From Candidatus Binataceae bacterium (GTDB lineage Bacteria; Desulfobacterota; Binatia; Binatales; Binataceae), in assembly GCA_963789715.1 (NCBI GenBank), contig CAWBLQ010000011.1:9263-73262 (forward strand): 64,000 nucleotides of DNA, written 5' to 3'. The notes beneath the pieces were generated by a model that saw only the letters and a list, made by a program, of their open reading frames with translations, made no database searches and had not been told where the DNA came from. The position numbers and the translations under genes were made by a program. This document shows, piece by piece, positions 2 through 2,038 of the stretch (positions are counted from its first letter, which is position 1; the number at the start of each line of letters is the position of its first letter).

Positions 2-715
2 CAAACCAGCCGCCTTTACGCCTTCGACAGCAGCGGCGTCGGAACTGCCGACTCGATTGGCCTCGTGACGGAATTCACCTATACGGGGGTGACCCCCATC
101 CCGCCAAGCGGGGCCGGCATCGAGTTGCAGGATTATTTCAGCAACGCCAACACTACCGGAGGCCAGGGCTTCGTCAATATCACTTCTCCCTTCGAGGGCA
201 ATCAAACGGCCACCAATCCCGTGGTTCAAGAGGGTGAGATGTGCGCGATGATCTACGTCTTGAACACCGACCAGGCGGTGGAAGCCTGCTGCGGGTGTCC
301 TATAACCGCCGACGGCCTGCTGACCCTGAGCATCAGCGGCAATCTGGCGCCGAACCCGGTGGCTTCAGGCAGGATTCTCCATGACGGCTCGATCCGCATC
401 CTCTCGACCGCTATCAATTCCGCTATCACCGGGCTGACGCTGCCCAGGGGCGTGAATTGCGACGCGGTCACCGGCGCCTGCTGCGATCCTGCCGCGGGGG
501 GCGGCGCCAAACCGCTGGTTCCCCAGCTTGAGCTGGCGGCATGGGCGAACCACGTGCAAAATACCCAGATCACCGAAGCGGTGTTCCAGACCACTCCCGC
601 TGCCGAGGCCACTGGCGATCTCACAAATTTGCCGTCCGCGTGCGCTTTCGCCATAGAGGCGGGCAGCGGCCAGGGAGTGTGTACCTGCGGCACCGGTGGA
701 TTCGGCATCGAGTAA
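2..715 (+). CDS. Secreted Cys-rich domain protein, paralog A (5' end lies outside the window; only the C-terminal conserved domain is present)
   Basis: The frame is open from base 2 to a TAA at 713-715. The C-terminal ~207 aa are nearly identical to the C-terminus of the 773..2038 product (GVTPIPPSG...CAMIYV...CCGCP...CCDP...CTCGTGGFGIE) and about 50% identical to the N-terminal domain of the 55268..56476 product. Confidence 0.7.
   Translation, partial: QTSRLYAFDSSGVGTADSIGLVTEFTYTGVTPIPPSGAGIELQDYFSNANTTGGQGFVNITSPFEGNQTATNPVVQEGEMCAMIYVLNTDQAVEACCGCPITADGLLTLSISGNLAPNPVASGRILHDGSIRILSTAINSAITGLTLPRGVNCDAVTGACCDPAAGGGAKPLVPQLELAAWANHVQNTQITEAVFQTTPAAEATGDLTNLPSACAFAIEAGSGQGVCTCGTGGFGIE
93..715. 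repeat. Near-identical ~625-bp direct repeat, copy 1 (copy 2 at 1414..2038)
   Basis: The nucleotide sequence from gtgacccccatcccgccaagcgggg through ggattcggcatcgagtaa recurs at 1414..2038 with only scattered substitutions. It corresponds to the conserved domains of paralogs A and B. Confidence 0.85.
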
Positions 716-772
716 CCGGCATACAAGAAGCGGCGGGCAGGCTAGCCACCTCGCCTCGCCACGGGGGACGCT

Positions 773-2038
773 ATGTATTACTTTGCCAGAGGCCTCATCC
801 GACCCGCGTTGATTGCACTTTCCATCCTCTTATGTCTGGGAAGTCACGTCCGAATTGCGGATGCCGATGTGAGTTGTGCAGTTCCTCCTGGTGGAACTCA
901 GACTAACGGGCCCGACGGGGATGGAAACTCTTGTACAGCAACTCAAACAACCGCGAGTACGGCTACGGCAAACGCGAATGGCTTTGGAAATAGCGCGACA
1001 TCGACCGCGACTACCGACAGCACTGCTAGCTCCACCGCGTCTAGCATCGTTAATACAGCGACGTCGACCGCTACTACCGACAGCACTGCTACCTCCACGG
1101 CGGATGGCGAATTTACTACAGCGACGTCGACCGCAACTACCAATGGCTCGGCCACTTCGACAACTACCGGTGTTGACAGCATGGCAACCGCCACAGCCAC
1201 CAGCAGCACCGCTATCGCCACCGCCTTCGGCGCAGGCACCGCAACGTCGACCGATAGCACCCCAGGTACGACCGTCTGTACATTTGCCGGCAACGGCTCA
1301 TCCACCGCAACCGGCAGCGACGTGAACGCCCCCAGTTGCGTAGGCGACGACGCCGTAGTCGTTAGTCCCGCGGGCGACTGCGGCCCGGTTGCCTCAAGTC
1401 CCTGCGCCGGCGTGACCCCCATCCCGCCAAGCGGGGCCGGCATCGAGTTGCAGGATTATTTCAGCAACGCCAACACCACCGGAGGCCAGGGCTTTGTCAA
1501 TATCACTTCGCCCTTCGAGGGCAATCAAACGGCCACCAACCCCGTGGTTCAAGAGGGCGAGATGTGCGCGATGATCTACGTCCTGAACACCGACCAGGCG
1601 GTGGAGGCCTGCTGCGGATGTCCGATAACCGCCGACGGCCTGCTGACCCTGAGCATCAGCGGCAATCTGGCGCCGAACCCGGTGGCTTCAGGCAGGATTC
1701 TCCATGACGGCTCGATCCGCATCCTCTCGACCGCTATCAATTCCGCCATCACCGGGCTGACGCTGCCCAGGGGCGTGAATTGCGACGCGGTCACCGGCGC
1801 CTGCTGCGATCCTACCGCGGACCGCGGCGCCAAACCGCTGGTTCCCCAGCTTGAGCTGGCCGCATGGGCGAACCACGTGCAAAATACCCAGATCACCGAA
1901 GCTGTGTTCCAGACCACCCCCGCTGCCGAGGCCGCCGGCGACCTCACTAGTTTGCCGTCCGCGTGCGCCTTCGCCGTAGAGACGGGCAGCGGCCAGGGAG
2001 TGTGCACCTGCGGCACCGGCGGATTCGGCATCGAGTAA
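773..2038 (+). CDS. Secreted Cys-rich domain protein, paralog B: signal peptide, then a Thr/Ser/Ala-rich repeat linker, then the conserved ~200-aa 8-Cys C-terminal domain
   Basis: ATG at 773 follows a purine-rich stretch. The N-terminus is signal-peptide-like (MYYFARGLIRPALIALSILLCLGSHVRIADA). Residues 60-150 are imperfect ~20-aa ATSTATTDSTAS repeats. The C-terminal domain is shared with paralogs A and C. Function unknown. Confidence 0.8.
   Translation: MYYFARGLIRPALIALSILLCLGSHVRIADADVSCAVPPGGTQTNGPDGDGNSCTATQTTASTATANANGFGNSATSTATTDSTASSTASSIVNTATSTATTDSTATSTADGEFTTATSTATTNGSATSTTTGVDSMATATATSSTAIATAFGAGTATSTDSTPGTTVCTFAGNGSSTATGSDVNAPSCVGDDAVVVSPAGDCGPVASSPCAGVTPIPPSGAGIELQDYFSNANTTGGQGFVNITSPFEGNQTATNPVVQEGEMCAMIYVLNTDQAVEACCGCPITADGLLTLSISGNLAPNPVASGRILHDGSIRILSTAINSAITGLTLPRGVNCDAVTGACCDPTADRGAKPLVPQLELAAWANHVQNTQITEAVFQTTPAAEAAGDLTSLPSACAFAVETGSGQGVCTCGTGGFGIE
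985..1200. repeat. Imperfect ~60-nt tandem repeats encoding the Thr/Ser/Ala-rich linker of paralog B
   Basis: Repeated units gcgacatcgaccgcgactaccgacagcactgct... encode ATSTATTDSTAS[ST]. Three to four copies are visible. Confidence 0.6.
1414..2038. repeat. Near-identical ~625-bp direct repeat, copy 2
   Basis: See copy 1 at 93..715. Confidence 0.85.

Follow-up and report, generated by a model that had tools for sequence, protein, structure and literature searches.

Secreted, disulfide-rich beta-sandwich modules are a known component of modular bacterial surface proteins, and the cysteine-rich domain of approximately 200 residues considered here (the Cys domain) fits that kind. It is encoded three times, in genes termed copies A, B and C, within a 64,000 nucleotide (nt) stretch of contig CAWBLQ010000011.1 from a Candidatus Binataceae bacterium, the whole of which is referred to as the window. 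Amongst described systems, the biofilm coat protein BslA of Bacillus subtilis is a secreted, stand-alone beta-sandwich of approximately 180 amino acids (aa) that ends in a C-x-C motif and is biofilm-regulated (bioRxiv 10.1101/138099; PMC7615278). The ASRT superfamily, likewise a beta-sandwich, has been proposed to bind sugars and includes extracellular versions (PMC2739507). In the sublancin system, sunA, the gene for a cysteine-containing exported product, adjoins that of a dedicated disulfide-forming protein (bdbA/bdbB; PMC4336743).

Set beside these, the Cys domain represents a genuine family that has gone undescribed and is missing from Pfam, NCBIfam and the PDB, and what is new about it is that no relative, by sequence or by fold, is found in the libraries searched. 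Our preferred reading, held tentatively and at a little under even confidence, is that of an exported, disulfide-stabilised extracellular module for binding or attachment, which would be either similar to a lectin or carbohydrate-binding module (CBM), or directed to the cell's own surface or matrix.

A conserved family of cysteine-rich domains

The original prediction, made from this DNA alone, proposed three paralogous proteins, two of them in tandem, that share a block of approximately 200 aa. The open reading frames (ORFs) exist as described (Table 1) and the block aligns between all three, with a family hidden Markov model (HMM) retrieving the window copies at E-values of 1e-90 to 1e-95; their kinship is therefore far beyond chance. 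The motifs CAMIYV, CCGCP, CCDP and the terminal C-x-C, which had been put forward as invariant, are indeed so in the alignment of copies A, B and C. Copy C is approximately 50 % identical to the other two over the domain, and copies A and B differ at 7 of 209 domain residues (approximately 97 % identity; 89 % in a full-length alignment). Also borne out was the placement of the domain, C-terminal to a Thr/Ser-rich repeat in copy B and N-terminal to a (TA/TP)n tail in copy C. The label of an '8-Cys' domain holds for the family-wide core (C53, C68, C69, C71, one residue in 126–134, C187, C200 and C202) and not for the window copies, in which exactly 10 invariant cysteines each fall within the domain.

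Pfam-A and NCBIfam (E ≤ 10) and PHROGs (E ≤ 1) recognised no domain in the window copies, the acidobacterial homologue or distant members, the sole rows in these scans being chance-level matches in low-complexity or signal regions. The Pfam ASRT model gave no match even at E ≤ 10, and no Pfam CBM family matched the Cys domain by sequence. Against PDB sequences, phmmer reached a best E-value of 1.3 and a profile of 100 sequences one of 0.1, so that no significant match was obtained here either. All named members are annotated as 'hypothetical' or 'uncharacterized', including RefSeq WP_117299912.1 (UniProt A0A372IM17) of Paracidobacterium acidisoli. Full-text literature searches on cysteine-rich, DsbA, LuxR or secreted proteins of Acidobacteria, and on tandem hypothetical proteins, returned nothing on the family, and the Binatota literature, as represented by its titles and abstracts, is about metabolism. 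The domain can thus still be called unrecognised: no characterised Pfam family accounts for it, and Foldseek comparisons with the PDB and BFVD (below) yielded nothing significant.

Few soil bacteria are as abundant, or as little understood, as the Acidobacteriota and Binatia, whose secreted proteins are mostly 'hypothetical'. It is in these two groups that the family is found, and the suggestion that it might be lineage-specific proved too narrow. A profile search of 1.84 billion cluster representatives assigned to it 1,695 clusters at 50 % identity with E ≤ 1e-3, 1,218 of them with E ≤ 1e-10; a word-indexed protein search returned 56 proteins. Across species-representative genomes, 218 stretches encode a relative. 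Their hosts are Binatia (Candidatus Binatus soli, Binataceae and metagenome-assembled genomes (MAGs) labelled 'delta proteobacterium') and Acidobacteriota (Terriglobales, Sulfotelmatobacter, Bryobacterales, Solibacter and the cultured P. acidisoli 4G-K13), plus one Eisenbacteria MAG. The nearest named relatives of the window copies belong to Candidatus Binatus, which by itself would point to a probable source of the window within the Binatia.

Conservation was assessed in 127 near-full-length members, mostly less than 50 % identical to one another, and the positions of the cysteines are kept across these homologues. C53, C68, C69, C71, C187, C200 and C202 are retained at 91–100 %, and the eighth core cysteine shifts within the 126–134 loop: members with eight cysteines have exactly one among columns 126, 133 and 134, whilst those with ten, including the window copies, have all three. 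The commonest cysteine counts are 8 (in 57 members) and 10 (in 46), even numbers of the sort expected from disulfides, and the pattern would fit four universal disulfides with one extra in the loop of Binatia-type members. Other near-invariant residues are Y17, A54, Y57, G101, W154, H157, E165 and G198.

The loop that precedes CAMIYV (domain residues ~36–42) carries the sequence E-G-N-x-T in copies A, B and C (e.g. 1514..1528 in copy B), which fits the bacterial N-glycosylation sequon D/E-x-N-x-S/T. A sequon in this loop occurs in 28 of 46 ten-Cys (Binatia-type) members, compared to 0 of 81 eight-Cys members.

With regard to copies A and B, their DNA is approximately 95.5 % identical over the domain (28 of 627 nt differ). 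This identity begins abruptly at the first domain codon and stops at the stop codon, with flanks that cannot be aligned; the duplication is thus domain-sharp. The differences comprise 20.5 synonymous and 7.5 nonsynonymous changes, a dN/dS of 0.11, from which it follows that both copies are under purifying selection. The N-terminus of copy A, which lies beyond the window edge, is supplied by a 425 aa protein (P0059) that shares 236 of 237 residues with copy A and is encoded on a contig syntenic with the window (L082, in which window position 1 corresponds to 10564 and the counterpart of copy A to 10001..11278). This protein consists of a signal peptide, an unannotated domain of approximately 190 aa (residues 32–~220; GNCYPFLC...YQQVY...ITALTFFF) with no Pfam or NCBIfam match, and then the Cys domain. 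Directly upstream of copy A, and outside the window, the same contig has a third tandem gene (8720..9943, 407 aa), whose product starts with this signal peptide too and has a middle that is Thr/Ser-rich, as in copy B, so that the genome holds at least four paralogues. The three tandem genes have a near-identical signal peptide and Cys domain with differing middle parts in between, giving a mosaic or gene-conversion pattern.

The original prediction had given signal peptides to all three window proteins. For copies B and C this agrees with the features of their N-termini, in which a basic n-region, a hydrophobic core and an A-x-A end can be read; that of copy A is visible only in P0059, where it is almost identical to that of copy B. 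The public gene call for copy B (P0001; L082 11744..12601) begins at an internal Met and encodes 285 aa, and so omits the signal peptide together with the greater part of the Thr/Ser-rich region. Our reading of 421 aa is supported by the signal peptide common to the neighbouring paralogues, and the same architecture is seen in P0017, P0023, P0061 and the third tandem gene of L082. For copy C, the start given previously (56476) is an in-frame ATG; homologues begin at a Met equivalent to ATG 56443, and the latter is therefore the probable true start, rather than 56476 or the GTG at 56485. That the tail-only design of copy C might be an assembly or frameshift artefact was considered and rejected, as it recurs in independent genomes (L003, L004, L009 and P0057).

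Predicted fold and domain architectures

An AlphaFold2 (AF2) model of the copy B domain from 100 sequences (m10effc57f93f) has a predicted local distance difference test (pLDDT) score of 90.9 and a predicted template modelling (pTM) score of 0.89; a model from 32 sequences was of moderate quality (pLDDT 75). The former model consists of a sandwich of approximately 10 beta-strands, to which are added two short helices and a C-terminal helix of 20 residues; the C-x-C tail packs back on the sandwich. Foldseek comparison of this better model with 350,542 PDB chains gave no match at E ≤ 1e-3, and nothing significant was returned by the other model from the PDB or by the better one from BFVD. The best E-value was that of FlgD (PDB 3OSV), which at 0.009, with a root-mean-square deviation of 12–14 Å and a query-normalised template modelling (TM) score of 0.24–0.26, is not significant. 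The sole repeated local likeness is to the ASRT beta-sandwich of approximately 100 residues (probability 0.84–0.96, target-normalised TM 0.54–0.60), a match that covers half of the domain at approximately 11 % identity, with a query-normalised TM of 0.30 and E ≥ 0.028. Matches to CBM6, the BT0996-C CBM and the CGL3 lectin had E ≥ 0.046.

Architectures were compared in 219 complete members, all beginning with Met. Stand-alone proteins of approximately 190–250 aa account for 179 of these (82 %); in the remainder the domain lies at the extreme C-terminus (29), directly after the signal peptide (10) or internally (1), and is thus terminal in 218 of the 219. An N-terminus resembling a signal peptide is present in 204 (93 %) by a heuristic of hydrophobicity and charge, and the earlier description of the proteins as secreted is upheld by sequence features of this type. 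A C-terminal sorting domain, as in PEP-CTERM proteins or the C-terminal domain of type IX secretion system substrates, was considered and discarded: no such NCBIfam or Pfam model matches, most members are stand-alone and the domain can be N-terminal.

When fused, the Cys domain keeps varied company. The partners that precede it include Big_2, DUF7933 with DUF11 repeats, Peptidase_S8, Laminin_G_3, CBM_4_9, DUF4394/DUF6923, a Gly-rich region and Thr/Ser-rich repeats, with many of the fusions joined through PT/TA linkers. In Binatia the domain often comes first and is followed by a long Thr-Ala/Thr-Pro linker, after which there may be an Ice_binding domain (PF11999; Pfam-confirmed in L006, and judged from similar sequence in L010 and L019), NHL-like repeats (L024), an unannotated domain of approximately 200 aa ending in QFDLSPLP (L005 and L017), or, as in copy C and the four genomes or proteins that share its design, nothing. 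The QFDLSPLP domain has no Pfam or NCBIfam match and constitutes a second unannotated module. The idea of a surface or adhesin module, as originally put forward, is in keeping with Big_2, DUF11/DUF7933, Laminin_G_3, CBM_4_9 and Ice_binding as partners, and to that extent it may be retained, as a deduction from the company that the domain keeps. A binding or attachment unit is favoured because the domain is terminal, usually stand-alone, and joined to many different passengers when it is fused.

The main rival to a binding module would be a small enzyme of a new type, secreted to attack, for example, a polysaccharide, peptidoglycan or some other polymer, with His157, Glu165 and Tyr residues forming the active site and the partners serving as targeting units or spacers. 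The retention of Y17, Y57, W154, H157 and E165 at 92–99 % across members that are less than 50 % identical is what an active site might produce, the domain is the constant partner of the accessory binding modules CBM_4_9, Laminin_G_3 and Big_2, and the PT/TA linkers resemble those of modular glycanases. Set against this, there is no similarity in sequence or fold to any enzyme family, the invariant acidic residue and the invariant His are each single, and no metabolic or transport genes occur in the neighbourhood. Members are, moreover, mostly stand-alone and arranged in multi-copy tandem arrays of divergent paralogues, which would be unusual for one activity. On balance, an enzyme is considered unlikely.

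Gene neighbourhoods and their bearing on function

Clustering of the neighbouring ORFs of 79 loci revealed two recurrent clusters, each present in 29 of them. One is a protein of 340–400 aa that begins with a membrane anchor and combines a SurA-like N-terminal domain with a Thioredoxin_4/DSBA domain containing CPYC (SurA_N-DsbA); the other is a GerE/LuxR-type regulator of approximately 190 aa. Downstream sequence sufficed for this comparison in 73 loci, and in 28 of these (25 of 50 from Acidobacteriota versus 3 of 23 from Binatia) the last family gene is followed, at −24 to +344 nt, by the DsbA-like gene in the same orientation. A PilZ gene is found in 11 of the 79 loci, and PilZ, Sel1 and large Big_2-like proteins recur within one acidobacterial subgroup. 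Judged by sequence, members show two features expected of a DsbA substrate, namely an N-terminus like that of a signal peptide and an even number of conserved cysteines.

The adjacency of a thioredoxin-fold gene in 28 loci allows for a redox-active extracellular or periplasmic protein, whose C-G-C (within CCGCP) and terminal C-T-C would alternate between the thiol and disulfide states, the DsbA-like protein acting as redox partner. Both C-x-C motifs are conserved at ≥ 91 %, and copy C adjoins genes for a GRDB-like selenoprotein and an AhpC/TSA peroxiredoxin. Redox proteins do not usually adopt a beta-sandwich, however, the redox genes beside copy C do not recur at other loci, and fusions to adhesin-type modules do not fit; we regard such a role as very improbable.

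The same gene pair could also suggest secreted antagonistic proteins, i.e. large bacteriocins or toxins with the DsbA protein as a dedicated maturation factor, as in the sublancin operon. There is precedent in sunA/bdbB for an oxidoreductase gene beside that of a cysteine-containing secreted product (PMC4336743, PMC6391423), and both the diversified tandem paralogues and LuxR-type regulation would suit this role. No recurrent small neighbour gene or ATP-binding cassette (ABC) exporter exists in the 79 loci, however, with neither a conserved immunity-like small gene nor a lysis gene beside the copies. Furthermore, the supposed warhead is conserved and the remainder variable, the reverse of polymorphic toxins, and fusions to Ig-like stalks and lectin-like modules point to surface proteins. 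There is accordingly only a slight chance of a toxin or bacteriocin, and this and the redox role are both less likely than binding, enzymatic activity or assembly.

Assembly refers to the stand-alone proteins as subunits of a self-assembling extracellular structure such as a matrix layer, coat or fibre, in which fused versions would be decorated subunits that display passengers, SurA_N-DsbA a dedicated chaperone and oxidase, and LuxR/PilZ the means of biofilm control. Tandem arrays are common and reach five paralogues (L031 and L035), resembling sets of major and minor subunits; a constant terminal domain with variable passengers at either end is likewise suggestive, as are the fusion of chaperone-like SurA_N to the DsbA partner and the presence in the locus of PilZ genes and GerE-type regulators (a family that includes CsgD; the match is weak and to the helix-turn-helix only). 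A terminal C-x-C is also found in film-forming BslA (bioRxiv 10.1101/138099). Conversely, the neighbourhood has no conserved gene for an usher, a secretin or any other part of an export or assembly machinery, the even cysteine count suggests that all pairing is within one molecule, and BslA is not among the 50 best Foldseek PDB matches listed. Assembly is consequently thought rather doubtful.

The extracellular binding or attachment module that we prefer draws upon several of these strands. That it is exported and oxidatively folded is suggested by the signal peptides, the even number of invariant cysteines, a DsbA-type neighbour in two phyla, the Pro/Thr-rich linkers and partners of surface or secreted type. 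A Sec-type signal peptide would carry the protein out of the cytoplasm, whereupon the domain of approximately 200 residues would fold into a beta-sandwich with a long helix at its C-terminus, held fast by four disulfides common to the whole family and, in the window copies and other Binatia-type members, a fifth. In many genomes oxidation would probably be performed by the membrane-anchored SurA_N-DsbA protein encoded directly downstream, with a LuxR/GerE-type regulator in the locus. The folded domain would then be the constant terminal unit of extracellular proteins, alone in about 80 % of members and otherwise accompanied by Ig-like stalks, lectin-like or CBM modules, an ice-binding-like beta-solenoid, a peptidase, or Thr/Ala/Pro spacers. 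Its most likely ligand would be a glycan, or a component of the cell surface or matrix, probably contacted by the near-invariant Y17, Y57, W154, H157 and E165.

A number of points weigh against such a module. Localisation and disulfides are both deduced, from signal-like N-termini and cysteine patterns, and near-invariant His, Glu, Tyr and Trp in such divergent members could equally mark a catalytic site. Joining to CBM_4_9 and Laminin_G_3 would be expected of a catalytic or effector domain and not of another binding module, and none of the members listed is joined to a glycoside hydrolase. The cassette is much rarer in Binatia than in Acidobacteriota. Within the window itself, BLAST at 1e-3 gave no match to DsbA, LuxR, PilZ or other cassette partners; lacking a DsbA homologue there, the window copies are orphan members of the cassette.

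A bolder, and in our view unlikely, proposal is that the domain has a hitherto unseen fold and that Acidobacteriota and Binatia build from it a surface-display or matrix system of their own, with stand-alone and passenger-carrying (lectin-like, Ig-like, ice-binding-like or peptidase) subunits that would be oxidatively folded by SurA_N-DsbA, controlled by LuxR/PilZ, and assembled on or attached to the surface. If true, this would represent a new way for abundant soil bacteria to build an outer layer.

The surroundings of the window copies are of a different character (Table 1). Copies A and B adjoin tRNA-Glu, tRNA-Gln and RNase Y, and copy C adjoins, in addition to the GRDB-like and peroxiredoxin genes, one for a luciferase-like monooxygenase. 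A scan of window positions 1..2500 for promoter and terminator consensus sequences found no sites, and Rfam at gathering thresholds (11 loci and the whole window) returned only two tRNAs, with no riboswitch or leader RNA, e.g. for cyclic di-GMP. ORFs in other frames or antisense also span the Thr/Ala-rich repeats (943..1443 (−), 876..1325 (+), 55173..55871 (+) and 55212..55757 (−)); these translate to low-complexity strings rich in Val/Ala or Arg/Pro/Asp/Gly, and were set aside as, most likely, by-products of the repeats.

Table 1. Coordinates of the window genes, their parts and associated features
Feature	Position	Strand	Content	Basis or remark
Copy A	2..715	+	Partial gene, 5′ part beyond window edge; domain in 3′ part	Translation
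Copy A Cys domain	86..712	+	209 aa, 10 Cys	Alignment; HMM E 3.6e-95
Copy B	773..2038	+	Complete gene, 421 aa	ORF; HMM E 4.4e-95
Copy B signal-peptide-like N-terminus	773..865	+	MYYFARGLIRPALIALSILLCLGSHVRIADA, A-x-A end	Read from sequence
Copy B Thr/Ala/Ser-rich low-complexity middle	866..1408	+	181 aa with T46, A32, S28; 6 extra Cys	
63 nt tandem repeats in copy B middle	995..1141	+		Repeat search
Copy B Cys domain	1409..2035	+	209 aa; sequence used for AF2 model	Conserved columns
tRNA-Glu(CTC) and tRNA-Gln(CTG), back to back	2235..2424	−	200 nt downstream of copy B, opposite strand	
Copy C	55268..56485	−	405 aa from GTG; domain first, low-complexity tail last	HMM E 3.4e-90
Copy C signal-peptide-like N-terminus	56351..56443	−	MHLRNRVLNTTIMILLAAAIATSAWPRMAAA, then ESEE	Conserved in Binatia paralogues
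Copy C Cys domain	55742..56350	−	203 aa, 10 Cys	
Copy C (Thr-Ala/Thr-Pro)n tail	55271..55741	−	157 aa: 77 Thr, 49 Ala, 14 Pro, 11 Arg	Nothing after
Two same-frame ORFs split by one in-frame TGA (54733..54731)	54731..55207 and 54350..54691 (span 54350..55207)	−		Directly downstream of copy C, same strand
Members with QFDLSPLP domain	L005 4256..5821 and 5902..7749; L017 5863..8028 and 8552..10372			

The split ORF pair downstream of copy C, if its TGA is read through, gives a 285 aa protein containing ...FFLVPA-U-PVCHQ..., a U-x-x-C motif. The product matches Pfam GRDB (glycine/sarcosine/betaine reductase selenoprotein B) at E 4.4e-11, with the match ending at the TGA, and is probably a selenocysteine protein. 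A stable hairpin directly after the TGA (54660..54740 (−); −33 kcal/mol for 81 nt) occupies the place expected of a bacterial selenocysteine insertion sequence (SECIS) element; with a z-score of only −1.7 versus shuffled sequences, it is suggestive of one but no proof. In the AhpC/TSA peroxiredoxin (53635..54537 (−)), a hydrophobic segment, MKMFTVGLIAIAVIVVG, precedes the conserved part; the start of the listed 300 aa ORF is probably placed too far upstream, and the product may be exported or anchored in the membrane.

Comparison with described systems

The family is large, strongly conserved and confidently foldable, with several copies per genome and tandem arrays, and as such merits a new family entry and structure determination, possibly of a new fold. 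Its definition would give a handle on how these bacteria attach to, or act on, their surroundings. The DsbA-type oxidoreductase and LuxR-type regulator provide testable genetic partners, and a member in the cultured strain P. acidisoli 4G-K13 makes experiments feasible.

In terms of structure, the ASRT/ASRAH family (Anabaena sensory rhodopsin transducer; PDB 2II7 and 2II8) has a local beta-sandwich resemblance to the Cys domain. It is, however, without disulfides and without the C-terminal helix, and the resemblance is no evidence of membership. The hook-cap protein FlgD (PDB 3OSV) is also an all-beta sandwich, but acts in a cytoplasm-to-flagellum context and has no cysteines. Closer in general design are the CBM families and Laminin_G_3, which similarly are small secreted beta-sandwich units, placed N- or C-terminally, with Pro/Thr-rich linkers and conserved aromatic and polar residues; CBM_4_9 and Laminin_G_3 are, nevertheless, fusion partners of the Cys domain and not its relatives. 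The same is true of the DUF7933/DUF11/Big_2 surface proteins, whose C-terminal end is formed by the Cys domain in both phyla (P0004, P0012, P0090, P0148 and P0153): the repeats are partners, and the Cys domain matches none of them.

With regard to systems that are comparable in their genetics or export, sublancin, a glycopeptide of 37 residues, is accompanied by an ABC exporter and an immunity gene, whereas here a folded domain of 170 aa is encoded without either. BslA, which shares the secreted beta-sandwich and the terminal C-x-C, has only the two cysteines of that motif, an Ig-like fold, a host from another phylum and no sequence similarity to the Cys domain.

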